64,000 nt of DNA from Candidatus Undinarchaeota archaeon (lineage in GTDB: Archaea; Undinarchaeota; Undinarchaeia; Undinarchaeales; UBA543). Each line of letters starts with the position of its first letter. The first letter of the stretch is position 1. Below, in pieces: positions 8,324 through 64,000 of the stretch. The stretch is from NCBI GenBank assembly GCA_964636545.1, contig CAZWSR010000001.1, positions 102,821 through 166,820 of the forward strand, read 5' to 3'. The translations under genes and the position numbers were made by a program. The notes under the pieces were generated by a model. It worked only from the letters and a program-made list of their open reading frames with translations. It was not told the DNA's origin and made no database searches.

Positions 8324-8608
8324 ATGGGGATAGGAATTTACTTCTTTGCAGGAGTGGCGATAGTAGTTGCTGTTTTAGCTTATTTAATATATTTTCAAAA
8401 GGACCCATTTAAGGTTATTACAAAGCATCCAAGCTTATCAGGAAGGATTGAGCCGATAAAACCAAGTGGGAAAGAATCAGCACCAGTAACTGGTGTTTGT
8501 GGAATGTGTGGCGACCAGGTGACAATGCCGTTTAAGTGTAAATTCTGTAAAGGGCTTTATTGTGAGAATCATCGGTTGCCTGAAGATCATGATTGTGACG
8601 GGGTTTAG
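8324..8608 (+). CDS. Membrane-anchored AN1-type zinc finger protein
   Basis: N-terminal TM; CGMC...PFKCKFCKGLYCENHRLPEDHDC. Confidence 0.85.
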   Translation: MGIGIYFFAGVAIVVAVLAYLIYFQKDPFKVITKHPSLSGRIEPIKPSGKESAPVTGVCGMCGDQVTMPFKCKFCKGLYCENHRLPEDHDCDGV

Positions 8609-8633
8609 CTTGGATAACGAATTTAGTTACTTT

Positions 8634-8693
8634 GGTATCGGCTGTCAGCCCTCAGCAGTCAGGGCCTGATGGCTGAATGCTGACACCTTAACC
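8634..8693. repeat. Palindromic heptamer-repeat element (nnnTCAG / CTGAnnn family), no cargo
   Basis: GGTATCG GCTGTCA GCCCTCA GCAGTCA GGGC CTGATGG CTGAATG CTGACAC CTTAACC; CTGACACCTTAAC (8680-8692) is identical to 62703-62715. Confidence 0.85.
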
Positions 8694-8763: not shown

Positions 8764-9609
8764 ATGGTTATGTGGATGCTCATAGCAATACCAATAATTC
8801 TCGTGTTCGGAGGACTAGGACTTATTGTAAAGTCTCCAAAGAATCTTATTCTTGGAAAAGTTTTGTTTGAATTTAAGGAATATGAACGAGGAGTTATCTA
8901 CAGATTCGGTAAATACCATCGTGTTGCAGAACCTGGATGGAAATTTATTATACCAGTTATTGAGAGTTTTATCAAGTACGATCTTCGTACTGAAACAATT
9001 GACATTCCACCACAATCAGTTATCACACGCGACGCAGTTAAATTAAATATTGACGCTATTATTTATCTTAGAGTTGACGATCCAGTAAAAGCAGAACTTT
9101 ATGTTGAAGAAGATTACAGAAAGGCAATTGAAGAGCACGTAAAAGGTCGTATTCGTAACCTTGTCGGAAGCATGGAACTTGATGAACTTTATGGAAAAAT
9201 TGACACAGTTAACAAACAGCTCAGAGAAGATGTTCAGAAACTCGCAATTGAGTGGGGCGTAATGATTGTTAACGTGGAACTTATCTCAGTTGCACCGCCA
9301 CAGCAAATGGTTGATGCAATGCAAGCAGAAGAAATTGCAGAGAGATACAAACGTGCAGAAATGCAGACAGCAGAAACAACCAAGATTAGAATTGGCGCAA
9401 TTGAAGAAGCTGCTGGAAAATTGTCAACTCCTGCTTTGAATTATCTTTACATAAAAGCATTGAAAGATATGGCAGACGGCAGAGCAACAAAGATTGTGTT
9501 CCCAATGGAGCTTACAAAAGCAGTTGAGAAACTTGCTGGTGGGCTTGGTGGAAAAGACAAATCAGATCTTGCAAGCACTGCAGAAAAGCTATTGGAGAGA
9601 ATCAAATAA
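8764..9609 (+). CDS. SPFH/band 7 (stomatin-like) protein
   Basis: EYERGVIYRFG, DLRTETIDIPPQSVITRD, EWGV; N-terminal TM. Confidence 0.92.
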   Translation: MVMWMLIAIPIILVFGGLGLIVKSPKNLILGKVLFEFKEYERGVIYRFGKYHRVAEPGWKFIIPVIESFIKYDLRTETIDIPPQSVITRDAVKLNIDAIIYLRVDDPVKAELYVEEDYRKAIEEHVKGRIRNLVGSMELDELYGKIDTVNKQLREDVQKLAIEWGVMIVNVELISVAPPQQMVDAMQAEEIAERYKRAEMQTAETTKIRIGAIEEAAGKLSTPALNYLYIKALKDMADGRATKIVFPMELTKAVEKLAGGLGGKDKSDLASTAEKLLERIK

Positions 9610-9614
9610 AGTTT

Positions 9615-9686
9615 TTTAGAGTTTAGATTTTGGAATTTAGAATTTAGAGTACTCCAAATTCTAAACTCTTAATTCCAAATTCCATT
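9615..9686. repeat. Palindromic heptamer-repeat element (TTTRGAN family)
   Basis: TTTAGAG TTTAGAT TTTGGAA TTTAGAA TTTAGAG TA CTCCAAA TTCTAAA CTCTTAA TTCCAAA TTCCATT. Confidence 0.9.
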
Positions 9687-17331: not shown

Positions 17332-18153
17332 ATGAACACAAAAATCCTTTACTGGACCAAGAATCCAGCAGCTCAGAATATTATGAAACAGTTTAATGAG
17401 CTTGGAGTAGATGTAGAAGTTTTTGAAACAGAGAAGGATTTTTTGTATTTGACTGATGAGGATATTAACGGGGCGCAGGGGCGCAGGGGCGCAGGGGCTC
17501 AGACTGATTTATTGATATTTCCAAGCACGCACAAGAGCGCTGCAAATAAAAAGTCATTAACTATTCACGCTACAGGTAATTTTGGGAATGCTGATTATGG
17601 TGGAGAGCCAAAGAAATTGAATCCAACAAGTTCTGAGGCGATTGCAATAGGACTACGCAGTATGGCGAATCAGGCACTAGGTAGTAGGCAGGGGGCAGTA
17701 GGTTTTGAAGTTTGTTTGGAAGTAACACATCATGGACCGACAATTAAAACTCCGTTAGTTTTTATTGAAATTGGTTCAACTGAAGAAGAATGGGGAAATG
17801 TGGAAGCTGGGAAGGTTATTGCAAATGCTATTAAGGATATTATTGAATACCTCAAACCCCCAACCCCAAACCCCAAACCTTTCACAAACTACATCGGCTT
17901 CGGCGGTCCTCACTATGCACCAAGCTTTACAAAAAAAATTATTGAAAATGAGAATATTGCAATTGGCCATATTTTGCCAAAATATCAGCAAGATAATGTT
18001 ACTAAAGATATTATTCAGCAAATGTTAGATGGAAGTAATGCAAAGAAAGCTGTTTTTGATTGGGATGGAATGAATTCTGAGCAGAGGAATAAGGCTGTTG
18101 GGATTTTAGATGAGTTGGGGATTGAGTGGTGTAAGACAAAGGAATTAGTTTAA
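17332..18153 (+). CDS. dtdA: D-aminoacyl-tRNA deacylase (archaeal DTD2 type) with three repeat-derived insertions
   Basis: STHKS, LTIHATGN, EVTHHGPT, FIEIGSTEEEW, GFGGPHY, GHILPKY. Confidence 0.93.
   Translation: MNTKILYWTKNPAAQNIMKQFNELGVDVEVFETEKDFLYLTDEDINGAQGRRGAGAQTDLLIFPSTHKSAANKKSLTIHATGNFGNADYGGEPKKLNPTSSEAIAIGLRSMANQALGSRQGAVGFEVCLEVTHHGPTIKTPLVFIEIGSTEEEWGNVEAGKVIANAIKDIIEYLKPPTPNPKPFTNYIGFGGPHYAPSFTKKIIENENIAIGHILPKYQQDNVTKDIIQQMLDGSNAKKAVFDWDGMNSEQRNKAVGILDELGIEWCKTKELV
17470..17504 (+). repeat. In-frame octamer tract in dtdA
   Basis: GGGGCGCA x3 + GGGGCTCA GAC, encoding GAQGRRGAGAQ. Confidence 0.9.
17672..17703 (+). repeat. In-frame heptamer tract in dtdA
   Basis: AGGCACT AGGTAGT AGGCAGG GGGCAGT AGG. 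Confidence 0.75.
17850..17880 (+). repeat. In-frame heptamer tract in dtdA
   Basis: CCTCAAA CCCCCAA CCCCAAA CCCCAAA, encoding LKPPTPNPKP. Confidence 0.75.
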
Positions 18154-25831: not shown

Positions 25832-25902
25832 AATGGAGTTTGGAGTTTAGAATTTAGAGTTTAGAGTAACTCCAAATTCCAAAATCTAAATTCTAAATTC
25901 TA
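25832..25902. repeat. Palindromic heptamer-repeat element (TTTRGAN family) overlapping the aspS stop
   Basis: AATGGAG TTTGGAG TTTAGAA TTTAGAG TTTAGAG TAA CTCCAAA TTCCAAA ATCTAAA TTCTAAA TTCTA. Confidence 0.9.
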
Positions 25903-27207
25903 CGGAGTTAATCTCTTAGCATCTCTTGGGAACAAAACAGCTTCCCGTACATTTGGCAAGCCAAGCATGACCATAACCAATCTGTCAACACCAATAGCCC
26001 AGCCAGCATGTGGCGGCATTCCGTATTTGTAAAACTCAATTGTTGATTCAAAGCCCTTTGGATTCATGCCTTTTGATTTCAAACCAGCAATGTACATGTC
26101 AGGATCGTGGATTCTGCGGCCACCTGAAGCTAATTCCATTCCTTCAAAAATTAAATCAAATCCGTATGATAGTTTTTTGTCTTTCTCATGTGGGTGGATG
26201 TAGTACGGTTTTTGCTCCATTGGCATTTCAGAAACTATCACAGGCCCTTTGTAAAGTTCTTGAATTATTCTCTCTCCCTCAGGTGGGATGTCCTCACCCC
26301 ATTTTAGTTTAAGTCCTTTGCCTGCAATTTGTTTTAGAATTTCAGTATAAGTTTTCACAACCATTTTCTTTGGCTGAGTAAGTGTGACTTTGAGGGTTTC
26401 AAGTTCTTTTTTGCAATTCTTTGCAACATCTGAGTAAATTCGCTTTAGGATGCCTTCTGCAACTGACCAAGTTGCTGTTTCATCAACAAAACCCATTTCA
26501 ATATCAAGTTGTGTTACTTCTGCTAAATGTTGAGTTGTGTCAGATGGTTCTGCGCGGAATACCTGACCAATTTCAAATACTTTTTCAAAACAAGATGTCA
26601 TTAATTCTTTGTAGATTTGCGGGCTTTGTCGCAAAAATGCTTCTTTATCAAAATAATTAATTGGGAAAAGTTCTGCACCACCTTCTGTGGCGCTTGCAAT
26701 CATTTTTGGTGTCTCAATTTCGCGGAAATCGCCTTCAGTTAGGTAATCGCGAGCTGATTTAAGAACTTGAGCGCGAATTGCGAAAATTGCCGATATTCGT
26801 GGTTTTCGGAGGTCAAGAACACGTGCGTCAAGGCGTGTGTCAAGCTCTGCCAAAACCTTCTCATTTACTTCAAGTGGTAGTGGTGTTTTGGACTTGTTTA
26901 GCAAAAGAATGTCGTCCAGGATGACTTCAACGCCCCTGTTTGTCTTATCTGTCTTTTTTACTGTTCCTTTTACTGCGACAGCAGACTCTCGTGTGATTTC
27001 TGAGAGTTTTTCAAAGGCCTTTGGTGCATTTTTCTTAAGAACCGTTACTTGAGCATCGCCTTCGCGGTCTGCAAGAACTAGAAAAGCTAGGTTTCCGTGG
27101 AGGCGAACGTCTCGCAACCAACCCATTAATGTTACTTTTTTCCCATCTAGAGCTGGAACTATTTCATTAGTGAAGTGTGTTTTAGTCCAGTTGGATAGTG
27201 AGTCCAT
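25900..27207 (-). CDS. aspS: Aspartate-tRNA ligase, archaeal type
   Basis: RLDARVLDLR, ATEGGAELF, QSPQIYK, FRAE, PPHAGWAIGVDR, LFPRD. Confidence 0.93.
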   Translation of the reverse strand: MDSLSNWTKTHFTNEIVPALDGKKVTLMGWLRDVRLHGNLAFLVLADREGDAQVTVLKKNAPKAFEKLSEITRESAVAVKGTVKKTDKTNRGVEVILDDILLLNKSKTPLPLEVNEKVLAELDTRLDARVLDLRKPRISAIFAIRAQVLKSARDYLTEGDFREIETPKMIASATEGGAELFPINYFDKEAFLRQSPQIYKELMTSCFEKVFEIGQVFRAEPSDTTQHLAEVTQLDIEMGFVDETATWSVAEGILKRIYSDVAKNCKKELETLKVTLTQPKKMVVKTYTEILKQIAGKGLKLKWGEDIPPEGERIIQELYKGPVIVSEMPMEQKPYYIHPHEKDKKLSYGFDLIFEGMELASGGRRIHDPDMYIAGLKSKGMNPKGFESTIEFYKYGMPPHAGWAIGVDRLVMVMLGLPNVREAVLFPRDAKRLTP

Positions 27208-52569: not shown

Positions 52570-53928
52570 TTACTTTTTCCGCTCATGCAATTTCATATGC
52601 CCTTTTTGGATTCCTTCAGTTGTAATTGCTTTTAATGCAGCGAAGTTTTGTGCAAGGCCTGCTGCTGCCATTACTTGAGCAAGTTCTTGAGCTGATTTTA
52701 CACCCAAGATTTTGAGATTTACTTGAGCTTGTGGGTGTTTTGTTGAACCGCCGACTGTGGCGACTGCTAGTGGTAATTCAATAGAGGCCTTTAAGTCATT
52801 GTTTCCTGTTAGTTCGTAGTGAGTTAATGGTTTGTAGGATGGAGTGTGGATTGTAGAGTGTAGAGTGTGGACTTCGCCTCCACGCCGCCCCGGCGCACCT
52901 GCGCCCCCTGAAACACTAGCATAGGCATGCGCTCCTGCTTCTACTGCTCGCCAGTCATTGCCAGTTGCTATGCAGATTGCTGAAATTGCATTCATTATTC
53001 CCTTGTTGTGAGTTGCTGCGCGGTATGGATCTACTTCTGCAACTTGATTTGCTTTGATGATGAGGTTGATTGTTTGTTCACTGAGGAGTTCTTTTTTGAA
53101 AACACACTCTGCTCTTGCTAATCGGCGGTCTGCTAAGTTGGAAACTATCTTTAGAACGGCTTTTCCACCAAGTTCTTCCAGTTTTGGAGCAATTGCTTCA
53201 ACCATTGTATTGACTATGTTGGCACCCATTGCATCTTTGCAGTCTACGTATAGGTGGATTCTGATGATTTGGGCAGTGGGCAGTGGGCAGTGGGTTGTAG
53301 GTGAGGATTCGTTATTTTCAGGCGCCTCTACGGCGCCCCGGCGCCCCGGATCCACAGGTAAAATATCAACAGAGAGATCTTTTGCACCGCCACCTAAGTT
53401 AATGAGTGTTGGGTTTTTTGAATTTGCTATTGTGAGAAGTTCCTGCTTCATATTTAGAATGTGTTGCACTACGTTCTCTTGCTCCTGGTTCAGGGTAGTG
53501 GGTAGTGGGCAGTGGGCAGTAGGAGAAGATTTGTTATTTTCGTTCTGAGCCCCTGAGCCCCTGAGCCCCGGCGCCCCGAATAAATGTATTTGCCCAATCA
53601 TTATTGAATCATCTGCTGAAGTTTTGAATCCACCACATTCGCGAGCAAGTTTTGCAGAGTTTGATGCAGCTGCAACTACTGAAGGTTCTTCAAGAACCAT
53701 TGGAATAATGTAATCTTTGTTATTTATTAGGAAATTTACAGCTACCCCGATTGGTAGTGAGAAATTTCCAATAACATTTTCAATTAATTTTTCTGAAAAA
53801 TCAGTTACACTAGGAAAATTTTTCAGTGTTTCTGCTTCTGCATCAGTTAATTCAGCAAATTCTTTAATAAAATTAAGTCGCTCTTCAGGTGAGCGTTCGT
53901 AAAATTTTGAAACTCTTGAAGTTTTCAT
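52570..53928 (-). CDS. mvaA: HMG-CoA reductase, class II, with three repeat-derived insertions
   Basis: ENVIG, EEPSVVAAAS, DAMGAN, THNKGIMN, GNDWRA, GIQKGHMKLH. Confidence 0.95.
   Translation of the reverse strand: MKTSRVSKFYERSPEERLNFIKEFAELTDAEAETLKNFPSVTDFSEKLIENVIGNFSLPIGVAVNFLINNKDYIIPMVLEEPSVVAAASNSAKLARECGGFKTSADDSIMIGQIHLFGAPGLRGSGAQNENNKSSPTAHCPLPTTLNQEQENVVQHILNMKQELLTIANSKNPTLINLGGGAKDLSVDILPVDPGRRGAVEAPENNESSPTTHCPLPTAQIIRIHLYVDCKDAMGANIVNTMVEAIAPKLEELGGKAVLKIVSNLADRRLARAECVFKKELLSEQTINLIIKANQVAEVDPYRAATHNKGIMNAISAICIATGNDWRAVEAGAHAYASVSGGAGAPGRRGGEVHTLHSTIHTPSYKPLTHYELTGNNDLKASIELPLAVATVGGSTKHPQAQVNLKILGVKSAQELAQVMAAAGLAQNFAALKAITTEGIQKGHMKLHERKK
52840..52908 (-). repeat. In-frame octamer + heptamer insert 3 in HMG-CoA reductase
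   Basis: + strand TGGAGTG TGGATTG TAGAGTG TAGAGTG TGGACTT ... CGGCGCAC CTGCGCCC. Confidence 0.85.
53271..53349 (-). repeat. In-frame octamer + heptamer insert 2 in HMG-CoA reductase
   Basis: + strand GGGCAGT x3 GGGTTGT, spacer, CGGCGCCC x2. Confidence 0.9.
53493..53578 (-). repeat. In-frame octamer + heptamer insert 1 in HMG-CoA reductase
   Basis: + strand GGGTAGT x2 GGGCAGT x2, spacer, CTGAGCCC x3 CGGCGCCC. Confidence 0.9.
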
Positions 53929-53952
53929 TTTTCTGAGTGGTATTGTAGCGGT

Positions 53953-54345
53953 TTAGTCTACTAGTTTAAATTTGTACCCGTACGAAATTGCTCCAGCTTT
54001 TCCATCTTCAGCTAATTTGCGGAAGCAAACACTGACTCTTTTCTTTATTGCAACATCTTCTGGATTGCAATCCACTAATTGAGCAGTTATTCGCGGACCT
54101 TCGTCCAATCTAATTATTGCAACAACATATGGTGCAAGGTTTTCAAAACCAGGAGGCGCTGCCCTGATTGTTGTGAAAGTTACTATTTGGCCTTGGCCGC
54201 TCAAGTCAAACCTGTCAAACACGTGCTCACTGCACTTTTTGCAGAGTGAACGAGGTGGAAAATTAATCCAATCGCATGATTTGCACTTGTTTGCAATCAA
54301 ATTGTAGCGTTGCGGGATCTCTCTCCAGAATCTTGGAACATTCAT
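53953..54345 (-). CDS. DUF35 Zn-ribbon/OB-fold scaffold of the thiolase-HMGCS complex
   Basis: CKSC...FPPR..CKKC, PYVVAII, ISYGYKF; operon context. Confidence 0.92.
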
Positions 54346-55502
54346 CGTGAGAAAATATGAACAGATGCAGTACCCCCACTACCGCCAACATTATGAGTAA
54401 GAACATAGTCAGGATCAGAAATTTGCCGCTTTCCAGCTTTTCCGCGTAATTGAAGAACTGCTTCAACTGCTTGAGCTACACCAGTTGCTCCAACAGGATG
54501 ACCTTTTGATTTTAATCCACCTGAAGTGTTAATTGGAATTGAACCATTGAGTACGGTATTATTTTCTTCAACAAATTTGCCACCTTGGCCTTTTTCACAG
54601 AAGCCGAGGTCTTCAATTGCGCAAATTTCAGCAATTGTAAAGCAGTCGTGTACTTCAGCGCAGCTTATCTGTTTTGGAGCGATTCCAGCCATTTCATATG
54701 CTTGTTTTGCTGCATGTACTGTTGCCCCGATAGTGCAAATATCTTTTCGATTGTGGAGAGCAATTGAACCAGTAGCTTGACCAGTTCCAGCGAGCCAGAT
54801 TGGTTCTTCACATAATTCTTTTGCTTTTTCTGCATTTGCCATAATTACAACTGAAGCACCGTCGCTAATTGGTGAGCAATCCAAAAGTTTGATTGGGTCT
54901 GCGATTTTTGATGAGTTCATTACTTGGTCAATTGTTATTTCTCGTTGGAACTGTGCTTTTGGATTGCGAGCGCCATTGTAATGGTTTTTTACAGCAACTT
55001 GTGCAAGCTGTTCTTCTGTTGTTCCGTGTTCGTACATGTGCCTTCTTGCTATCATTGCATAAAGTCCAGGGAAAGTTGCACCTTGGAATGCTTCCCATTC
55101 GCGGTCTGCAGCTGAAGATAATGCATCTGTTGTCCGGTTTGTCATCACATCAGTCATTTTTTCAACACCACCAGCAGCAACTATGTCGTATTTTCCTGAC
55201 TTTATTCCCATGTAAGCGGCGGCGATGGCCATTCCGCCTGAAGCGCATGCAGCTTCTATTCGCATTGCAGGTTTTGGGATCATTCCGGTGTGATCCATTG
55301 CTAATGAGGCTAAGTGTTCTTGTTCAATGAATTGTCCGCCGCTCATGTTTCCGCCAAAAAGTGCGTCAATGTCATTTGAACTAATTCCTGCATCTTGGAT
55401 TGCTTGTGCACCAGATTTTACAAATAAAGAACGGAATGATTCATTCCAAAGTTCACCGAATTTGGTAATTCCGATTCCGATTATTGCGACTTGTTGGCTC
55501 AA
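54342..55502 (-). CDS. Acetoacetyl-CoA thiolase, archaeal type
   Basis: [35 protein letters not shown]; TTG start inferred from SD spacing. Confidence 0.93.
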
Positions 55503-55520
55503 GATATACAACCCCCTTTT

Positions 55521-55561
55521 GTCTGAGCCCCTGGGCCCCGGCGCCCCGGTGCCCCTGAACC
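55521..55561 (-). repeat. Intergenic octamer arm
   Basis: GT CTGAGCCC CTGGGCCC CGGCGCCC CGGTGCCC CTGAACC. Confidence 0.88.
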
Positions 55562-55572
55562 AATTTCACAAA

Positions 55573-56616
55573 TCATTCTGTTTTAATTTTCCCCCTGTAT
55601 TTTGCATACATACCATATTCAATATAGCGGCGCTTGTTAATGAAATGAGAAGTTTTTGGAGCTAATTCTTGTGCTTCTGTTATTTTGTCAGTGACTGTGA
55701 AAATAAATGAGTCAGATCCAGCTCCAGAACCGTAGGATGTGAGAAGGATTTTTTCGCCAGGTAGTGCATTGTCAAGAACTGCAGCTAGTGCAAGTGGAGT
55801 TGCACCAGAATATGTGTTTCCAATTTGTGGTGAAAGTAGGCCAGGCACTAGTTGTTCTTCAGTAAAGCCAAGTCGTTTTGCAGCTTGTCTTGGAAATTTG
55901 CCATTTGGTTGATGTGGGATGAAATAATTAAAGTCAATTGGCTCTAAACCAGATTTTTCAAGAATGTTTTTAGTGCAGGAGATGATGTGTTTGAAATATG
56001 CTGGCTCGCCAGTGAATCTGCCGCCGTGTTGTGGATATGTTTGATTTTCTCTGCGCCAGAAATCTGGTGTGTCTGTTGTGAAAGAAAGTGTGTGTTCAAG
56101 TTTTGCGAGAAGATTTTCGCGTCCGATTACAAAAGCTGCCCCACCAGCTGCAGCAGTGTACTCCAAAGTACTTCCAGGAGCACCCTGAGATGTGTCTGAG
56201 CCAGCTGCTAGGCCGTAATTAATCATTTCTGACTTGACAAGCCCGAAAATTGCCTGCATTGCAGCAGTTCCAGCCTTGCAAGCGAACTCGAAGTCAGCTG
56301 CTGTTAGGTTTGGTGTTGCTTCCAGAGCTTCTGCGAGAATAGTTGCTGTTGGTTTGACAGCATATGGGTGAGATTCAGAACCAACATAGATTGCACCAAG
56401 TTTTGCTGGAGAAATTCTTGCTCGCTTCATAGCGTTTCGCCCTGCTTCTACAGCGATTGTAGCAGCATCTTCGTCAGGTGCAGGAACAGACTTTTCAGAA
56501 ATCATAAGACCTTTTTTCAGTGCTTCTGCGTTCTGGCCCCATACTTTTGCAATTTCTTCAACTTTAATTCTGTACGCAGGCACGTAACTACCGTAGCCAA
56601 CTATTCCAGCATCCAT
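55573..56616 (-). CDS. Hydroxymethylglutaryl-CoA synthase
   Basis: [38 protein letters not shown]. Confidence 0.96.
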
Positions 56617-56741
56617 ATGGAGACAGTGGTTGAAGAGTTTTAAAGGATTACGAAGTGGAAGGAAAAGTTGCAGTTGTTGGTAAAAAAGTTGCAGAGGAGA
56701 CAGATAGTAAACATTATTAACCCACGCTTCTTTGTTTAGTT

Positions 56742-57821
56742 ATGGATTTAGAAAAGCGCATTGAGCTTATTACAAGAGAACCAATTGAAGAAGTTATTAC
56801 TAATGAGGATTTGAAAGGATTATTAGAAACAAAGACTGCGCCAATGGCTTATGATGGTTTTGAGCCAAGTGGATTATTGCATTTGGCATCTGGGCTTATG
56901 CGAGCTGAGAAAATTAATGATTTATTGAAAGCTGGGGTTGGATTTACACTTTTTATAGCAGATTGGCACGCAGCACTGAATAATAAATTTGATGGAAATA
57001 TGGACATGATAAAAACTGCTGGAGAATACCTAATAGAAGGTTGGAAAGCGTGTGGAGTTGACACAAAGAAAGTGAAAATGGTTTGGGCATCTGATTTAGT
57101 TAACTCAGAAGGATATTGGGAAGGGGTGATGAGATTTGCAATAAAAACTTCACTCAAACGCGCAATGAGAACTGCCCCGATTATGGGAAGAGAAGCAGGA
57201 GAAGATATGCTCACATCTCAAGTACTTTATCCGTTCATGCAGGCGTATGACCCATTCCACATGAAAATTGATATTTTGCAGCTAGGAATGGACCAGAGGA
57301 AAGTGACAGTGCTTAGCAGGGAAATGGCAAAAAAGATGAAACTACCGAAGCCTGTTCTTTTACATCATCATTTGCTTGCAGGATTGCAAGGAGTAGATGC
57401 TGGAAGGATGGGACAAGAAGATACAGAACCAGGAGCAGATGCTAAGATGAGTAAGTCAAAACCAAGCAGCTGCGTGTTTATTCACGATTCCAAGAAAGAA
57501 ATTCAGGAGAAATTGAATAAAGCACATTGCCCAGAGAAAGTTGTTGAAGGAAATCCTATTTTGGAGATGTGGAGATACATTATTTTCAGGAAAGTTGATG
57601 GTTATACAATTAAGAGACCTGCAAAGTTCGGTGGAGATTTGGAAATTCACGATTATGAAGAGTTGGAGAAACTATATTCTGGTGGAAAACTGCACCCAAT
57701 GGATTTGAAAAATGCAACTTCTGAAGTTATGGATAAGATTTTAGCTCCAGTTAGAAAACATTTTGAGAAAGGAAAGGCGAAAGAGTTATATGAAACTGTA
57801 AAGAAAGCTAAAGGGTTGTGA
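56742..57821 (+). CDS. tyrS: Tyrosine-tRNA ligase, archaeal type
   Basis: YDGFEPSG..HLAS, ADWHA, YPFMQ, GMDQ, KMSKS, LHPMDLK. Confidence 0.96.
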   Translation: MDLEKRIELITREPIEEVITNEDLKGLLETKTAPMAYDGFEPSGLLHLASGLMRAEKINDLLKAGVGFTLFIADWHAALNNKFDGNMDMIKTAGEYLIEGWKACGVDTKKVKMVWASDLVNSEGYWEGVMRFAIKTSLKRAMRTAPIMGREAGEDMLTSQVLYPFMQAYDPFHMKIDILQLGMDQRKVTVLSREMAKKMKLPKPVLLHHHLLAGLQGVDAGRMGQEDTEPGADAKMSKSKPSSCVFIHDSKKEIQEKLNKAHCPEKVVEGNPILEMWRYIIFRKVDGYTIKRPAKFGGDLEIHDYEELEKLYSGGKLHPMDLKNATSEVMDKILAPVRKHFEKGKAKELYETVKKAKGL

Positions 57822-57822
57822 A

Positions 57823-60258
57823 ATGACAGAACACACTTTCTGCTTGCTGGATATTGACTATGAACTTGTAGATGGAAAAGCAATTATTCGAATGTTTGGC
57901 CGCACTAAGCAGGGGAAAAGTATCCTAGTTACTGACAAGAATTTTGAACCGTACTTTTATGCAATGTTGGATGGGAAGTTTGAAGATGTTAAGAAGAAAT
58001 TGCTTGAGAAGAAAACATCTGACTATGAAATTGTGAAAGTTGAGAAAGTAAAGAAAATTTACAAAACAAAAGAAATTGAATTAGCTAAAGTTTACACCAA
58101 GAATCCAACTCAAGTGAGGGAAGCAAGAGAGGGTGTGAAAAGAATTGATGGTGTTAAGAATTATTTTGAAGCAGATATTTTATTTGGAAGACGTTATATT
58201 TTGGATAATGATTTAGAGCCAATGACTTTGGTTAAAGTGAAAGGCACTCCTTTTGAAAGTCCTTTGAAAGTTGATATGGCAATTGATATGGAAGGAAAAC
58301 CAGAAGCAGTTGAGGGTGAAATTCCTAAAATGAATGTTGCAAGTTTTGATATTGAAGCATATTCGCCAAAAGGACTTCCGCAGCCAGAAGATGATCCAAT
58401 GATAATGCTGAGTGTTGCAAGTGATGGAGTGGAGAAGGTTTTCTCAACAAAAGAAGGGCCTGATTTTGTGAAAGTTGTTAAAGATGAGAAAGGAATTCTG
58501 GAAGAATTTGAAAAGTTTTTGGAAAAAGAAGATATTGATATTATTACTGCATACAACTCAGATAATTTTGATATGCCGTACCTTTCAACTAGAGCGAAGA
58601 TATTGAAGCACAAAATCAAATTAGGTAGAGATGAAAGGGGAATTAATCAGAAAAGTAAGGGGCGATATCATTCAGCTGGAGTAACTGGGCGAGAGCATAT
58701 TGATCTTTACCATTATGTGAATATTATTTTAAGGGGAGCACTTGGTCAAGTGAATAAACGGACTTTGAAAAGCGTTGCTGGGCACTTTTTGAAAGAGGAA
58801 GAAGGGAAAAAAGACATGGATTGGCGCGAGATTGATAAATATTGGAAAGGTGACAAGAAAAAACTAAATGAGTTTTATGAATATTCAATGACTGACGCTA
58901 TTGTTACAAAGAAATTGTCAGATATTTTTATGCCAAGAGAATATGAAATTGCGAAATTGGTTAGGGTGCCATTATTTGATGCTAGCAGAACAACTTACGG
59001 GCAACTTGTTGAAGCATATTTGATGTGGAATGCAATTAAGCGGAATGAGTTGATCCCAAACAGGCCAATGGATGAGGAAAAAGAGGCAAGAGCAAAGTTT
59101 GAGGCATTTGAAGGGGCGTTTGTGCTGGAACCAGAGAAGGGAATGCATGAAAATGTTGCACTTTTCGATTTCAGGTCACTGTATCCAACAATTATTATTT
59201 CCCATAATATTGATCAGAGCACAATTGATTGTGATTGTTGCAAAGGAAAAGCAAAGGTAGTTGCTGGCGGACACTGGTTCTGCGAGAAAAGACAGGGGCT
59301 CATGCCAATGGTTTTGAAAAATATTCTTGAAAAGAGAGTTGAGATTAAGAAAGAGTTGGCAAAACAGAAAAAAGGTTCTGAGGAATATGTTAGATTGAAT
59401 AATACTCAGTATGCTTTGAAGATTTTGGCAAATTCTGCTTATGGTTATTTGGCTTATCGTGGTTCTCGTTGGTATACAAGAGATGGTGCAAGTTCTGTTA
59501 CTGCGCTTGGACGAGAATATATTAAAAAAATTGTTGATATTGCAGAGAAAGAATTTGATTTGAAACCAATTTACGGAGATACTGATTCTATTTTTATTAC
59601 AACAAAAGATGAAAGTCCTAAAATTAGAGAAATTGGAGAGAAATTCCAGAAAAGAGTGAATGGTGAACTGCCTGGAGTTATGGAACTTGAGTTTGAAGAT
59701 CTTTTCAAACGCGGAGTTTTTGTTGCTAAGAAACGGTATGCAATGATAAATGACAAAGATGAGCTGAAAATCAAGGGTTTGGAGTTTGTGAGACGAGATT
59801 GGTCGCCAATTGCAAAGGAAACGCAAAAGAAAACAATTGAAACACTTTTGAAAGATGGAGATGTTGAGAAAGCATTTACAGTTGTGCGGAATGCTGTTAA
59901 GAGAATTACTGAGGGAGATGTTACAATTGAGGATTTGGCTGTTTATACTGATTTGTCAAGACCGCTAGATAAATATTTGGTAACTGCTCCACATGTTGCA
60001 GTTGCAAAGATTTTGAAAAGAAATGGTGAGGATATTAAGACTGGATCAACTATTGGGTATGTTATTTCTGAAGGCGGGGGCAAGGTTTCTGACAGGGCCA
60101 AGCCAGTTGAAGGATTTAATATCAAGACTTATGACAAAAAATATTATATTGAGCACCAGATTATTCCTGCTGTTTCAAGAGTGATGGAGGCGCTTGGCTA
60201 TGGAGAAGATGAATTGATGGGGAAGAAGCAAGGGAAGCTGAGTGAATATTTTGGATAA
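57823..60258 (+). CDS. polB: Family B DNA polymerase
   Basis: FDIE, YNSDNFD, DFRSLYP, KILANSAYGY, YGDTDS, KKRY; no intein. Confidence 0.98.
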   Translation: MTEHTFCLLDIDYELVDGKAIIRMFGRTKQGKSILVTDKNFEPYFYAMLDGKFEDVKKKLLEKKTSDYEIVKVEKVKKIYKTKEIELAKVYTKNPTQVREAREGVKRIDGVKNYFEADILFGRRYILDNDLEPMTLVKVKGTPFESPLKVDMAIDMEGKPEAVEGEIPKMNVASFDIEAYSPKGLPQPEDDPMIMLSVASDGVEKVFSTKEGPDFVKVVKDEKGILEEFEKFLEKEDIDIITAYNSDNFDMPYLSTRAKILKHKIKLGRDERGINQKSKGRYHSAGVTGREHIDLYHYVNIILRGALGQVNKRTLKSVAGHFLKEEEGKKDMDWREIDKYWKGDKKKLNEFYEYSMTDAIVTKKLSDIFMPREYEIAKLVRVPLFDASRTTYGQLVEAYLMWNAIKRNELIPNRPMDEEKEARAKFEAFEGAFVLEPEKGMHENVALFDFRSLYPTIIISHNIDQSTIDCDCCKGKAKVVAGGHWFCEKRQGLMPMVLKNILEKRVEIKKELAKQKKGSEEYVRLNNTQYALKILANSAYGYLAYRGSRWYTRDGASSVTALGREYIKKIVDIAEKEFDLKPIYGDTDSIFITTKDESPKIREIGEKFQKRVNGELPGVMELEFEDLFKRGVFVAKKRYAMINDKDELKIKGLEFVRRDWSPIAKETQKKTIETLLKDGDVEKAFTVVRNAVKRITEGDVTIEDLAVYTDLSRPLDKYLVTAPHVAVAKILKRNGEDIKTGSTIGYVISEGGGKVSDRAKPVEGFNIKTYDKKYYIEHQIIPAVSRVMEALGYGEDELMGKKQGKLSEYFG

Positions 60259-60812
60259 TGGATAAATTATACGAAGCAATCAAAGTTTTGCGAGAAGGTG
60301 GAGTTATTGTTTATCCTACTGAAACTGTTTATGGACTAGGCGCTAATATTTTTAATGAGGATGCTGTGAAGAAAGTTTATGCTTTGAAAGGAAGAAAATT
60401 TGACAAGCCGCTTTCAGTTGCAATGCGAAGGGAGGATATGAATGAATATGGTGTTGTGAGTGATACGCAGTTGATTGATTTAGAATTGAGTTTGCCAGGA
60501 CCAGTTACAATTGTTGCAAGAAAGAAAAAGATTCCAGATTGGATTACAAATACTGATTTTGTTGGGATGAGAGTGCCAGAGCACCCAGATGCTTATGAAT
60601 TAGTTTCAAGGTTTGGGCCAATAACAAGTACTTCTGCTAATAAAGCTGGAGGGAAAAGTCCGATTTCAGTTGATGAAATTCCAAAAAGTATTTTGGACAA
60701 AGTTGATTATGTTATTGATGATGGGGAAACAAAATATAAACAAGGAAGTACAGTGATTAAAGTTACTGATAGTATTGAAATATTGCGGGAGGGAGCATGG
60801 AAGAAGAAGTAA
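60258..60812 (+). CDS. tsaC: L-threonylcarbamoyladenylate synthase (YrdC domain only)
   Basis: YPTETVYGL, KGR...KPL, PGPVT, STSAN, STV. Confidence 0.93.
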   Translation: MDKLYEAIKVLREGGVIVYPTETVYGLGANIFNEDAVKKVYALKGRKFDKPLSVAMRREDMNEYGVVSDTQLIDLELSLPGPVTIVARKKKIPDWITNTDFVGMRVPEHPDAYELVSRFGPITSTSANKAGGKSPISVDEIPKSILDKVDYVIDDGETKYKQGSTVIKVTDSIEILREGAWKKK

Positions 60813-61693
60813 TTCAAAAATACAAACAAGCTGGAGAAATATTGAAGAAAGCACAGGAGCTTGCGAAAGAAATTGTTAAGCCAGGTGCTGGAATTCAAGA
60901 AATCACTGATAAAATTGAAGCAAAGATTTTGAAAGATGGTGGAAAGATTGGATTTCCACTAAATGTTTCAATAAATGAAAACGCTGCACACTTTACTCCG
61001 GACACGAATTGTGATTTGAAATTTGAAAAAGAGGATTTAGTGAAGATTGATATTGGGGTGCATGTTGACGGTTATATTGCTGACTCCGCTATTACACTGA
61101 GTATGAATAATTGTGCTGAGCATAAGAATTTGATAAAGGCTGCTGAAGCTGGTCTGAAAGCTGCTTTGGAAATTGCAAAGCCAGGAGTTACACTAGGTGA
61201 ACTTGGAACTGCTATTGAAACTGCAATTACTGAATTTGATGTTGTGCCAATTGCGAATTTGACTGGTCATTTGCTTGAGCAGAACAATTTGCATGCTGGA
61301 CTTTCAATTCCGAATATCAAAAATGAGTCAGATATTACATTAGAAGAAGGAATTGCAATTGCTATTGAGCCATTTTCAACAACTGGAGCTGGAATGGTTA
61401 CTGATGCAAAAGAAGTTTACATTTACGAATATTTGCAAGACAAACCAACTAGGAATCGGGAAGCAAGAAAGATTTTGGAAATGTCAAAAAACGAATTTGG
61501 TGGGCTTCCGTTTGCAATTAGATGGGTTGAAAAGGAATTTGGAAAACTGAAAGCAAGAATGGCAATAAATGAGCTTGCAAAGAGCAAGGCACTTTATCAA
61601 TATCCGGTTTTGAAGGAAAAAACTGGTGCATTGGTTGCGCAGGCGGAACATACAGTATTAATACTGGATACGCCTATTGTCACAACGAAATAA
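60797..61693 (+). CDS. map: Type II methionine aminopeptidase
   Basis: AAHFTP, DIGVHVDGYIAD, NLTGH, AIEPF, QAEHT. Confidence 0.96.
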   Translation: MEEEVIQKYKQAGEILKKAQELAKEIVKPGAGIQEITDKIEAKILKDGGKIGFPLNVSINENAAHFTPDTNCDLKFEKEDLVKIDIGVHVDGYIADSAITLSMNNCAEHKNLIKAAEAGLKAALEIAKPGVTLGELGTAIETAITEFDVVPIANLTGHLLEQNNLHAGLSIPNIKNESDITLEEGIAIAIEPFSTTGAGMVTDAKEVYIYEYLQDKPTRNREARKILEMSKNEFGGLPFAIRWVEKEFGKLKARMAINELAKSKALYQYPVLKEKTGALVAQAEHTVLILDTPIVTTK

Positions 61694-62196
61694 TGGCAAA
61701 ACGAGTTTGGTTTAGCAAAGAGAAATTCAAACTAATGTTTGATGATCAAGTAAACGAATATACAAGTTTAGGAGGCAATTTTTTCTATGGTTTCTTATTT
61801 TTCATTACTTTTGCACTAGGTTACACTGCAGAAATGCCTGAGATGATGGATGCTGCGCGCGTTCTTCTGATTGCAGGAATCTTGTTTACTATTGTCGGTT
61901 TTGGATTGAAATACGTTGTTGGAAGAACAAGACCAAATAAAGTTAGTTTAAGATGGGCAAGTGCAATGGAAAGAATGAATGATGCATCGTTCCCAAGCAT
62001 ACATTCTGGACGAGCAGTTATAATTGCATATACTTTTGGGCATTTATTGCCAAGTTTTGGAAAGCTTATTTTCTGGATAATAATGTTGGGGGTTCCATTA
62101 ACAAGAGTTTATTTGAAAAAACACTTTTGGAGCGACATTATTGCAGGGGTGTTATTTGGATTTTTGATTGCTTACGGCGTGAGATTGGTGATATAG
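61693..62196 (+). CDS. PAP2-family membrane phosphatase
   Basis: K...RTRP, SFPSIH, TRVYLKKHFWSD. Confidence 0.9.
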   Translation: MAKRVWFSKEKFKLMFDDQVNEYTSLGGNFFYGFLFFITFALGYTAEMPEMMDAARVLLIAGILFTIVGFGLKYVVGRTRPNKVSLRWASAMERMNDASFPSIHSGRAVIIAYTFGHLLPSFGKLIFWIIMLGVPLTRVYLKKHFWSDIIAGVLFGFLIAYGVRLVI

Positions 62197-62715
62197 GTTA
62201 AGGTATCAGCAGTCGGCCCTCAGCCCTCGGGTCAGAATAACTGGAAGACTGCATTATACATCTGGCATTTTCTTAATAAAACTGTATGTCATTTTTGCAA
62301 GACACTCAATTTCTTCTTTTAAGACAAGATGTGTTTCTTTTGGAATATATCCTAAATCACGAGCTAAAAGCAGATGATAATCAAGTTCTTTTATAGAATG
62401 ATAAGAATAAAATAAATATCTTCTGGCTGCAGGAGTTGTGTTTTGACCACAACCTTCAACAATATTTGTAGGAATTGATGCACTTGACCGTCTTATTTGA
62501 TCAATCAACCGATATCTCTCTTTGGAAGGAAATGTATCCACGAGTTTATCTAATTTTAATACAAGATTATGAGCTTTTTTCCAAATAATTAATTCTGTAT
62601 AATCTCTTGTCATAAATTTATCATGCCGATATCCTCTTTATAAAAATTTGTAAACTCGCTTGAGTTGGTGGCTATTGTCACCTGACGGCTGAGGGCTGAT
62701 ACCTGACACCTTAAC
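62196..62715. mobile_element. Putative element: four-helix-bundle gene bracketed by inverted heptamer-repeat arms
   Basis: Left arm 62196-62235 and right arm 62682-62715 are inverted (27/34 by hand); perfect terminal GTTAAGGT/ACCTTAAC; mobility is inferred only. Confidence 0.55.
62254..62613 (-). CDS. Four-helix-bundle protein (23S rRNA IVS protein / Avd-like family)
   Basis: LIIWKKA...FPSKERYRLIDQIRRSSASIPTNIVEG...ELDYHLLLARDLGY. Confidence 0.92.
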   Translation of the reverse strand: MTRDYTELIIWKKAHNLVLKLDKLVDTFPSKERYRLIDQIRRSSASIPTNIVEGCGQNTTPAARRYLFYSYHSIKELDYHLLLARDLGYIPKETHLVLKEEIECLAKMTYSFIKKMPDV

Positions 62716-62741
62716 AAATATAAACAACTACTACTATACAC

Positions 62742-63059
62742 ATGTATAGAAAAATGAATGAAAAAACCCTAAAACAACGGAATTTGATTTTGCGAACCAT
62801 GGCGAAAGCGCGAGCAGAAGATGGTTTAGAGTTTTTGTGGCTAAGGGAATTAACTAGACGGACTGGTTTGAATATGGGAACAGTTGGCTGGGTTTTGCAC
62901 AGATACTTATCACCAGATTATATTGAATTTCCTGAAGTAGATGCACTGATACAGCACGGTTTGAAGATCCGTCCAATTAAATTAAAGGACAAAATTTATG
63001 AGCAAATGATTGGGAAAGCAACGAAGAAAGAAGGAAAATCAGAAGTAAAAGCAGAGTAA
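62742..63059 (+). CDS. Winged-helix-like DNA-binding protein
   Basis: LWLRELTRRTGLNMGTVGWVLHRYL. Confidence 0.65.
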   Translation: MYRKMNEKTLKQRNLILRTMAKARAEDGLEFLWLRELTRRTGLNMGTVGWVLHRYLSPDYIEFPEVDALIQHGLKIRPIKLKDKIYEQMIGKATKKEGKSEVKAE

Positions 63060-63130
63060 AAACCCGACCACCATAACCTATTTAACTACTAAAATTCAAC
63101 AAAAAGTAACGATAACTAGAGGGGATTATA

Positions 63131-63625
63131 ATGACAAAGAATGATGAAAAACCAGAAGCAGAAGCACCAGCGGAAGCTGTTAAAGAAGCACCTAAAAGTG
63201 AGGATGCTGACATGGAAAAGCAATTGGAAGCAGAAGATGAAAGACTCCCATTTCCAAATGCTAGAGTTGTAGCTTTAATGAAAAAAGAGCTTGACAAAGA
63301 GAAGATGATTCGAGCCCGTGTGAAGAAAGAAATGAATGAATTTTTAGGTAGAATTGTTAGAAATGTAGCCAGAGAGATGAATAAGAGCCCATATACAGTG
63401 ATTGAAGGTGGCGACTTGCACAGAGCAATCAAGAAGTATGAGAAAATGGAAGAGATTGCTTCACAAAAGGAGAGATTGATAGGGTACATGGACCGAATCA
63501 AGCAGGATTGTAATGTTCTTATATCTGATGTTGAGCGATCTTTTGATTTAGAAGGGCAGACCAAGGCGTTTAATGCACCAAAGAAAGAAGAAGAACCTGT
63601 TGAAGAAGCACCTACTGAAGAATAA
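63131..63625 (+). CDS. Histone-fold protein with acidic tails and C-terminal helical extension
   Basis: RLPFPNARVVALMK...MIRARVK...TVIEGGDLHRAI. Confidence 0.7.
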   Translation: MTKNDEKPEAEAPAEAVKEAPKSEDADMEKQLEAEDERLPFPNARVVALMKKELDKEKMIRARVKKEMNEFLGRIVRNVAREMNKSPYTVIEGGDLHRAIKKYEKMEEIASQKERLIGYMDRIKQDCNVLISDVERSFDLEGQTKAFNAPKKEEEPVEEAPTEE

Positions 63626-63679
63626 ATATTTTTTAGGGGAGTGTAAAAACTTCTCTGTAGTTTTAAAAGAAAGAGTGAG

Positions 63680-63698
63680 AGCGCGTTTTTACGCGCGC
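63680..63698. terminator. Short GC hairpin between convergent genes
   Basis: GCGCGT-TTTT-ACGCGC. Confidence 0.3.
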
Positions 63699-63714
63699 CC
63701 TAGATTATTTGGGT

Positions 63715-64000
63715 TTATCGGCAAATACCGTCGTTGCGGTCGTCTAGATCGCACTTGGTTGAGCCTGGGCATTCATAATTTGCAAAAGATTTAATATTGC
63801 CATCACAGAAATATTTTCGTGCAGTATCTCCATTTATACACATATCATTAAATGTTTTTCCATCTTTGTCAACAACTTGTCCTTGAACTCGAAGGTTCAA
63901 AACATCAAACTCATGACATTGTCCATCAGGAACTTCAACAGGAACTTCGTTTTCGAGTTCTTCCTCTTCTTCATCTACTGGAACAGCAGATGAGCTACCC
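63715..64000 (-). CDS. C-terminal part of a Cys-rich, probably secreted protein running off the window edge
   Basis: DMC...YFC...ECP...KC...GIC pattern; frame is open to the window end. Confidence 0.6.
   Translation of the reverse strand, partial: GSSSAVPVDEEEEELENEVPVEVPDGQCHEFDVLNLRVQGQVVDKDGKTFNDMCINGDTARKYFCDGNIKSFANYECPGSTKCDLDDRNDGICR

Follow-up and report, generated by a model that had tools for sequence, protein, structure and literature searches.

A probable intervening-sequence-type cassette outside rRNA in an Undinarchaeota archaeon

Introduction

The window studied here is a stretch of 64,000 nucleotides from a Candidatus Undinarchaeota archaeon (NCBI GenBank assembly GCA_964636545.1, contig CAZWSR010000001.1, positions 102,821 to 166,820 of the forward strand); coordinates are counted from its first letter unless another locus is named. 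Near its end, directly behind the stop codon of a PAP2 gene, a gene for a four-helix-bundle protein is enclosed by two inverted arms in a block of about 520 bp. The protein belongs to PF05635, the family of the open reading frames (ORFs) found in intervening sequences (IVSs) of bacterial 23S rRNA. How does a gene of this family, together with such arms, come to stand between protein genes of an archaeon? Probably, the block is a cassette of IVS type that stands outside rRNA in an archaeon and is gained or lost as a whole. It is likely to be one copy of a widespread cassette type, so far recognised only when it interrupts bacterial rRNA. In this type, a PF05635 gene lies between two inverted arrays of about four to five heptamers, which read TNAGNNN upstream of the gene and its complement downstream. 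The evidence comes from the architecture of the window locus, its generality over 80 homologous loci, a genuine 23S IVS, gain or loss of the unit in plasmids and related gene-less hairpins.

The question touches three puzzles that have stood since about 1990: the origin of rRNA IVSs, the role of their conserved ORF, and the nature of the abundant cyanobacterial and bacterial heptamer repeats. Many genomes carry annotated members of the protein family, S23p or IVP ("four helix bundle protein"), for which the literature covered gives no known function.

Results

Arms and gene of the window block

The four-helix-bundle gene (62254-62613, minus strand) codes for 119 amino acids and is assigned to PF05635 and TIGR02436 (23S rRNA-intervening sequence protein). 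The PAP2 ORF beside it (61693-62196) is on the plus strand and ends with TAG; the final G of this stop codon, at 62196, is the outermost base of the left arm. Read in the direction of the gene, the upstream arm (62682-62715, minus strand) consists of five 7-nt units of TNAG type, the first TAAG and the next four TCAG, and the downstream arm (62196-62235, minus strand) carries their complement in 7-nt units of CTGA/CCGA type, beginning 19 nt past the stop codon of the gene. The arms match at 27 of 34 positions and their outer 8 bp pair perfectly, as read by eye from the flank alignment. A repeat search extended the inverted pair to 62185-62239 and 62673-62727, that is 55 nt with 76% complementarity and 433 nt between them. 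Between the arms, a TATA-like box, TTTTTATAAA, was read from the sequence at 62646-62637 on the minus strand; from the middle of its core to the ATG at 62613 there are about 27 nt. The initial annotation had described arms with these matches and ends, a left arm starting on the last base of the PAP2 stop, a gene antisense to both of its neighbours and a TATA-like sequence within the arms, and each of these features was found at the same place, the gene being on the minus strand and the ORFs on either side on the plus strand.

When one flank of the gene was aligned to the reverse complement of the other, the score was 45 (z = 12.5, 100 shuffles). In a flank test of 55 window ORFs the cassette gene reached z = 13.1 and the runner-up 4.3, leaving it the sole ORF with strong flanking inverted repeats. 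For TCAG or TCRG spaced by 7 nt, the window has 10 matches where 0.36 would be expected, and all ten lie either in the cassette or at 8638-8690. The arms form the closing stem in the folds of either strand, with -139.2 kcal/mol for the minus strand (z -5.1) and -136.8 kcal/mol for the plus strand (z -4.6). A chance origin of the inverted repeat within an AT-rich spacer would agree with the modest complementarity of 76-79%, and with nothing more; the flank z of 12.5-13.1, the TCAG periodicity and the recurrence of the same build in distant relatives leave this explanation with a negligible probability, and it was rejected.

A search of the 64-kb window for rRNA found none, and two tRNAs are present. 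The host is archaeal: for a neighbouring PolB gene the best named relatives are annotated as "archaeon" (60%) and "Candidatus Undinarchaeales archaeon" (57%), and PolB relatives with 81-90% identity also exist.

Family and fold of the protein

The initial annotation had proposed a four-helix-bundle protein similar to the IVS and Avd families and had left the family to be settled by hidden Markov models. Run on the protein, these models place it far over the cut-offs of PF05635 (110 bits vs 33.8) and TIGR02436 (104.8 bits vs 24). In an alignment of the query with 36 homologs, the window protein keeps all 15 invariant residues. Its nearest homologs are six proteins with 57-99% identity; the next tier has about 39-52%, and the few organism names given there are bacterial. 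A sequence match was obtained with Xcc0516 (PDB 2gsc; E 3.3e-16), and the predicted model (predicted local distance difference test, pLDDT, 96.7) has four helices, at residues 9-25, 30-55, 60-86 and 92-115. Its structural matches are Xcc0516 (2gsc; template modelling (TM) score 0.90), BT_0352 (TM 0.81-0.84) and the Avd protein of a Bordetella phage (TM 0.78). Xcc0516 is described as a homopentameric ring in passages of PMC4990558.

The likeness to Avd raises another explanation, namely that the gene codes for the Avd accessory protein of a diversity-generating retroelement (DGR). The fold match would suit this, and so would weak sequence matches to Avd models (PF22296 with 18.8 bits, NF033474 with 22.7 bits, and a single PHROGs match, phrog_3206, E 3e-06). 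However, the two curated models are far under their cut-offs, which are 40 and 80 bits respectively; no reverse transcriptase is found among the scanned ORFs at 52570-63999, a range that covers 10 kb upstream of the gene and only the 1.3 kb downstream that precede the window end; and the ORFs at 52570-63625 each belong to another family or have no family match. A DGR accessory role is therefore very improbable. A PADLOC scan of the cassette protein gave no match.

Heptamer arms as a trait of the family

A scan of genome contigs yielded at least 80 homologous loci, taken as the best-scoring ones (39-48% identity); the 80 listed comprise 79 bacterial loci from many phyla and one from Bathyarchaeia. 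In each, the 200 nt before the gene were aligned to the reverse complement of the 200 nt after it, and the score was set against those of 100 shuffles. Among the 79 testable loci (one was untestable), z exceeded 4 in 63 and 6 in 57, the median being 8.2, while for control ORFs from those loci z exceeded 4 in 15 of 410, with a median of 0.29. Two of the 11 top control ORFs that were scanned turned out to be additional PF05635 genes. The initial annotation had made its reading depend on other four-helix-bundle genes of the lineage having arms; this check turned out favourably, arms being present in 63 of the 79 loci.

In the arm listing of the homologous loci, the arms are nearly always tandem heptamers with the consensus TNAGNNN. 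Within 200 nt of 84 family genes, tandem arrays have a period of 7, 14, 21 or 28 in 142 of 167 cases, against 117 of 419 elsewhere, and arrays of this period-7 type are about 12 times denser per kb near family genes than elsewhere. They occur on at least one side of 78 of the 84 genes and on both sides of 52, with a median of 4.4-4.5 units. The phased unit profile is T (0.79), N, A (0.80), G (0.93), followed by weaker C/T and T; reverse-complemented downstream arms yield the identical unit consensus, shuffled arms have no comparable signal, and the units of the window fit the profile. In the typical geometry an arm has 30 nt, the upstream arm ends 33 nt before the start codon and the downstream arm is at the stop codon; the stop codon of the ORF lies within the downstream arm in 30 of 62 loci. 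The single Bathyarchaeia locus has TCAG/CTGA arrays, and the stop codon of its ORF is likewise inside the downstream array. Cassettes in the homologous loci typically have 475 nt (range 408-650), a range into which the 520 nt of the window cassette fit. A scan for rRNA at 20 arm-bearing loci found it in none of them.

Some individual loci deserve a mention. Two four-helix-bundle genes within 10 kb are present in 4 of the 80 loci (L005, L017, L031 and L045), and in L005 and L031 the second copy is likewise flanked by inverted repeats. In L003 (3375-3501) the upstream arm of the cassette is preceded, at a distance of 20 nt, by the end of a tRNA gene. On plasmid pCC7120gamma of Nostoc sp. PCC 7120 (L081, 1400-1900) a family member is bordered by two insertion sequence (IS) transposase genes; the 7-nt-periodic runs before and after it are mutually non-complementary, so that this copy is without arms. 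Four ordinary genes reached z 8.5-19.5 in the arm test, coding for a cytochrome c (L061, 6527-6931), a glutamine amidotransferase (L023, 3908-4480), a dehydrogenase (L078, 6978-7922) and an aldo-keto reductase (L052, 6388-7413); a likely cause of these high scores is that the spacers before and after each gene hold heptamer arrays of a single type.

One homolog match, in the AZO_p2 record of Azospirillum lipoferum 4B, has no annotated feature and falls within a 23S rRNA gene. On both sides of its ORF stand 36-nt arms with 86% complementarity, each a period-7 array of ACAG-type units. The build of this genuine 23S IVS is the same arm-ORF-arm order as in the window. For the Coxiella IVS, a 28-bp terminal stem, cleavage by RNase III and tandem GACAGAT heptamers before the S23p ORF are described in passages of PMC4990558, where the origin and function of IVSs are stated to be unknown.

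Presence and absence of the unit in plasmids

Among 18 plasmid records with a homolog, 17 are cyanobacterial. In Nostoc, a five-gene module recurs in many plasmids with 86-93% identity (26 records), and in the 14 non-self records listed the gene is annotated under the match in 5 and not in 9. An alignment of two occupied and two empty alleles shows that the difference is a block of about 445 nt, made of TCAG-type heptamers, the ORF and CTGA-type heptamers, and set precisely into the interval from a stop codon to the start codon that follows it, an interval of 3 nt in the alleles without the block. The block has a 6-7-nt direct repeat at both ends, and the empty site itself resembles two heptamer units. 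The cassette ORFs of the two occupied alleles are 98.4% identical, their flanks 91.5-98.3%. In the neighbouring Nostoc spacer, gene-less arrays of the unit type of the cassette vary.

A similar case was found in Pseudanabaena. Plasmid pPg_01 of Pseudanabaena galeata has a cassette with long arrays between cas6 and cas4, while in the plasmid of another Pseudanabaena strain, with flanks 88.9% identical, the gap between cas6 and cas4 is 36 nt and holds a short direct heptamer array and no gene. The arrays of the P. galeata copy (L082, 1283-1962) are very long, with about 15 and about 11 units; those directly beside the ORF are direct repeats of one another, not inverted, and an extra inverted array is present further upstream. 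The initial annotation had likened the window block to an intervening sequence lying outside rRNA, and this likeness is upheld by the window being free of rRNA, by the identical build of the Azospirillum IVS and by the presence and absence of the unit in related plasmids.

Gene-less heptamer hairpins

Heptamer hairpins also occur in the window without the gene. A TCAG-heptamer hairpin at 8632-8692 stands 24 nt past the stop codon of a zf-AN1 gene (8324-8608). Its kinship with the cassette arms is clear: it has the orientation of the cassette and an exact 13-nt outer right end in common with it, fold z values of -4.2 and -3.0, and matches to the arm regions of 20/23 and 27/32 with scores of 31 and 39, the shuffle maxima being 22 and 18. 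Two further gene-less hairpins are built of AT-rich heptamers (AGAGTTT/AGAATTT type): one at 9612-9684 (fold z -5.3), 3 nt past the stop codon of the ORF 8764-9609, and one at 25836-25902 (fold z -5.6), whose right edge overlaps the stop codon of a class II aminoacyl-tRNA synthetase gene (25900-27207, minus strand). Over 65 nt the two share about 85% identity (score 83 vs a shuffle maximum of 30); they are of the same element class as the cassette-type hairpins and belong to a different sequence family. All four elements of the window, the cassette and the three hairpins, stand 0-24 nt behind a stop codon.

Such hairpins suggest that the arms could be unrelated to the gene, being copies of a genome-wide heptamer hairpin of terminator type or of the type of repetitive extragenic palindromic (REP) sequences, inside one of which the gene merely happens to lie. 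The three gene-less hairpins behind stops, one of them with the arm sequence of the cassette, are in line with this idea, as are the bacterial loci, where 15 of 69 heptamer arrays distant from the cassette also have an inverted partner. On the other hand, genes and arms are associated in 63 of 79 loci from many phyla and in only 15 of 410 control ORFs, the empty alleles of Nostoc are without both arms, and the type of heptamer unit tracks the identity of the protein. Moreover, an exact 7-mer of the resident cassette recurs in 15 of the 69 distant arrays (the arms of a random other locus give a mean of 5.4), and this sharing indicates common descent of the distant arrays and the cassette instead of independence. 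It is thus rather improbable that the gene is a chance passenger of a hairpin, and a cassette made of gene and arms together remains the preferred reading.

Pairing of the arms in RNA or in DNA

The initial annotation had proposed that the arms could pair and loop out the gene in RNA or single-stranded DNA. The first part of this proposal agrees with the folds, in which the arms are the closing stem on both strands; for the mRNA of the gene itself it would fail if the TATA-like box is used. In Archaea, promoter spacing places the transcription start at or next to the ATG for a TATA box in this position. If the internal box is used, the mRNA would start at or near the ATG and would not include the upstream arm, and then pairing of the arms would be possible only in read-through RNA or in DNA. 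The position of the box, a putative promoter, suggests that the mRNA of the gene is leaderless.

Mismatches between the arms point in the same direction. Over 62 loci, 52 of them are G-U pairs when the sense strand is taken and 51 when the antisense strand is taken, with 181 others; in the window, G-U pairs number 1 in the sense and 3 in the antisense strand. As the G-U pairs have no strand bias, tuning of the arms to the sense RNA was given up as an explanation, and these counts together with the putative internal promoter argue against a stem tuned to the RNA of the gene. As judged from the sequences, the complementarity of the arms favours an inverted repeat that acts as DNA, or else arms that pair in read-through RNA from either strand.

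An RNA-level mechanism like that of the RNase III-processed rRNA IVSs would require that the arms pair in a transcript, that a nuclease specific for double strands or for splicing cuts the stem, and that the loop is released or circularised. The closing stem in the folds of both strands suits this mechanism, the true 23S IVS of Azospirillum has the same architecture, and RNase III excision is documented for ORF-bearing IVSs of Coxiella in the same passages of PMC4990558. Against it, the arm mismatches over 62 loci have no strand-specific wobble, and the TATA box inside the arms would leave the mRNA of the gene without a 5' arm. Archaeal transcription ends at T-runs, and the T-runs on the plus strand inside the cassette could end read-through transcripts. 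A bulge-helix-bulge motif (two 3-nt bulges on opposite strands with a 4-bp helix between them) was looked for in the minimum-free-energy stems of both strands and none was found; these stems have only symmetric internal loops (3x3 and 1x1). To our knowledge, most archaea are devoid of RNase III. An excision from RNA is accordingly considered unlikely for the window block, though it is a more serious candidate than the alternatives discussed before, and the block is further treated as a cassette gained or lost as a unit.

Stop codons in the arms

One strand of each TNAG variant contains a stop codon, which the 7-nt period brings into each of the three frames within three units. For the strands of the arms that read outward, closure in three frames was seen at 32 of 62 loci where 3.5 were expected; the strands that read inward are closed in 19-20 of 62, against about 5 expected. 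In the window cassette both outward strands are closed, and the minus strand of the downstream arm has stops in all three frames.

Neighbouring genes and other repeats of the window

The initial annotation had called the downstream neighbour of the cassette a winged-helix gene. This ORF of 105 amino acids (62742-63059, plus strand) has no match in Pfam, NCBIfam, PADLOC or PHROGs, and the label is not supported. For the next ORF, 63131-63625, a weak histone-fold match alone was obtained (E 0.044).

Heptamer and octamer runs of another kind, GC-rich and within ORFs, are also present in the window. The HMG-CoA reductase gene (52570-53928, minus strand) has three in-frame GC-rich inserts of about 80-100 nt, at 52836-52916, 53262-53362 and 53478-53582, each with G-rich heptamers (GGGCAGT, GGGTAGT, GAGTGTA) separated by a spacer from C-rich octamers (CTGAGCCC, GGCGCCCC). 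The inserts add loops rich in Gly, Ala, Pro and Arg to the protein, whose PF00368 domain is otherwise complete; in-frame repeat insertions are known from the Rickettsia palindromic elements, which offer a parallel. The gene for a conserved enzyme, a D-aminoacyl-tRNA deacylase (17332-18153), has in-frame runs at 17470-17502 and 17849-17879, made of the octamer GGGGCGCA (4 copies) and the heptamer ACCCCAA (4.4 copies). A further octamer run, at 55527-55555, lies in the intergenic spacer that separates the thiolase gene from that for HMG-CoA synthase. The runs within ORFs fold no better than their shuffles and were treated as a phenomenon separate from the hairpins.

Discussion

How the cassette may work

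By analogy with the plasmids, the window cassette would be an insertion into the spacer immediately downstream of the PAP2 stop codon, acquired probably through recombination at short heptamer-like homology and not by a transposase of its own. Its gene would be transcribed from the internal TATA box as a leaderless mRNA, and the arms, as a closing stem at the DNA level or in read-through RNA, would unite the two flanks. The arms may also act as a translational barrier in three frames, so that a cassette could occupy a spacer of 3 nt without fusing reading frames.

The protein, as a relative of the nucleic-acid-binding Avd, may act on nucleic acid, possibly on the heptamer arrays themselves: the conservation of T, A and G in the unit suggests a conserved reader, for which the protein itself would be the obvious candidate. 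Arrays of 4-5 units would suit the five subunits of a pentamer. Binding to spaced short motifs has a precedent in TRAP, which recognises spaced triplets. Going further, PF05635 proteins and TNAG arrays could form one two-part system across Bacteria and Archaea, in which a ring-shaped pentamer binds about five phased heptamers on one strand and maintains, spreads or regulates the hairpins; this is a speculative proposal, with the odds clearly against it.

Points that speak against a cassette gained or lost as a unit

Several observations weigh against this reading or narrow it. As regards mobility, the insertion at the PAP2 junction of the window is argued from analogy with other loci, and no clear target duplication was seen at the window cassette, whose outer flanks have only ATATA in common. 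The four-helix-bundle protein is the only ORF of the cassette, and no transposase or recombinase family was matched. The direction of the Nostoc polymorphism is not polarised, and it could be a precise deletion instead of an insertion; the Nostoc alleles give no sign of recent transfer either, one flanking ORF being conserved equally to that of the cassette (98.3% vs 98.4%), a comparison that is not decisive. As regards the arms, 16 of the 79 testable homologous loci are without significant ones, and the correlation of the heptamer profile with protein identity (Mantel r = 0.23, reached in 0 of 2000 permutations) includes no control for host relatedness. Tandem Repeats Finder returned 0 rows for the window arms, because their units have only TCAG/TCGG in common. 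Finally, the closure of outward strands in only 32 of the 62 loci would limit the role predicted for the arms as a stop barrier.

Meaning of the cassette type

Part of the picture is already known: IVSs with this ORF and terminal inverted repeats, heptamer repeats (the cyanobacterial ones and TAACTGA), and the scatter of the family through cas loci and rRNA insertions of the candidate phyla radiation (CPR). A literature search found no work in which PF05635 genes are connected with heptamer arrays or free-standing cassettes with arms are described; subscription journals were mostly outside its reach, so that an earlier description is possible.

The analysis yields a testable rule, according to which genes of the family, in Bacteria and in two archaea, lie between inverted TNAG heptamer arrays, rRNA IVSs being a special case, and the gene is gained or lost together with its arms where neighbouring genes are closely spaced. 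The rule would explain why family genes turn up in cas operons and in unrelated contexts, as noted in passages of PMC3936711; an association that arises by insertion need not mean a shared function. If the two-part system is true, ORF-bearing IVSs, ORF-less IVS hairpins and arrays of the cyanobacterial and TAACTGA types would be faces of one class of selfish elements, whose trans factor would have gone unrecognised for thirty years.

Comparison with known systems

With the Avd protein of DGRs, the cassette protein has the four-helix-bundle fold in common (TM 0.78), together with a distant sequence similarity. It differs in that the cassette has no reverse transcriptase and no template and variable repeats, and in its scores under the cut-offs of the Avd models.

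Small palindromic repeats include miniature inverted-repeat transposable elements (MITEs), REP sequences and Rickettsia palindromic elements. The cassette shares with elements of MITE/REP type the terminal inverted repeats, the presence of gene-less copies in one genome and the presumed insertion into tight spacers. Unlike them, it has no known transposase, and its arms of phased heptamers vary in sequence from copy to copy while the 7-nt period and TNAG are kept.

The heptamer tandem repeats of cyanobacteria are known as short tandemly repeated repetitive (STRR) sequences. TAACTGA direct repeats are described, in passages of PMC4679880, from Beggiatoaceae, Cyanobacteria and Bacteroidetes. Like the cassette arms, STRR and TAACTGA arrays are intergenic, have 2-6 or more 7-nt units beside start or stop codons and carry stop codons in the unit, and a unit of TAACTGA type was seen in cassette arms, for instance in locus L043. 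However, these repeats were described as direct repeats without an associated gene, whereas the arrays of the cassettes are inverted pairs around one gene family; in PMC4679880 the terms "23S", "four helix", "S23" and "intervening" have 0 occurrences. Head-to-tail 7-nt units are clear in the homologous loci, while the window has the TCAG spacing and no call by Tandem Repeats Finder.

Genes of PF05635 type are scattered through cas loci and CPR rRNA insertions, as described in passages of PMC3936711, PMC10910872 and PMC11270868. The closest known systems are the ORF-bearing 23S IVSs, those of Leptospira and Coxiella (in passages of PMC4990558) and that of Azospirillum (L088), which share with the window cassette a PF05635/S23p ORF of about 120 amino acids, a loop of about 400 nt between complementary termini of about 30-36 nt, an overall length of about 430-520 nt and heptamers in the arms (GACAGAT as reported for Coxiella, ACAG-type in Azospirillum). 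Excision by RNase III, the functional hallmark of IVSs, is unlikely to apply to the window cassette. Unlike the 23S IVSs, this copy is archaeal, is antisense to its neighbours and has an internal TATA-like box of archaeal type; it is built like an ORF-bearing IVS, but stands in a spacer between protein genes of an archaeon.

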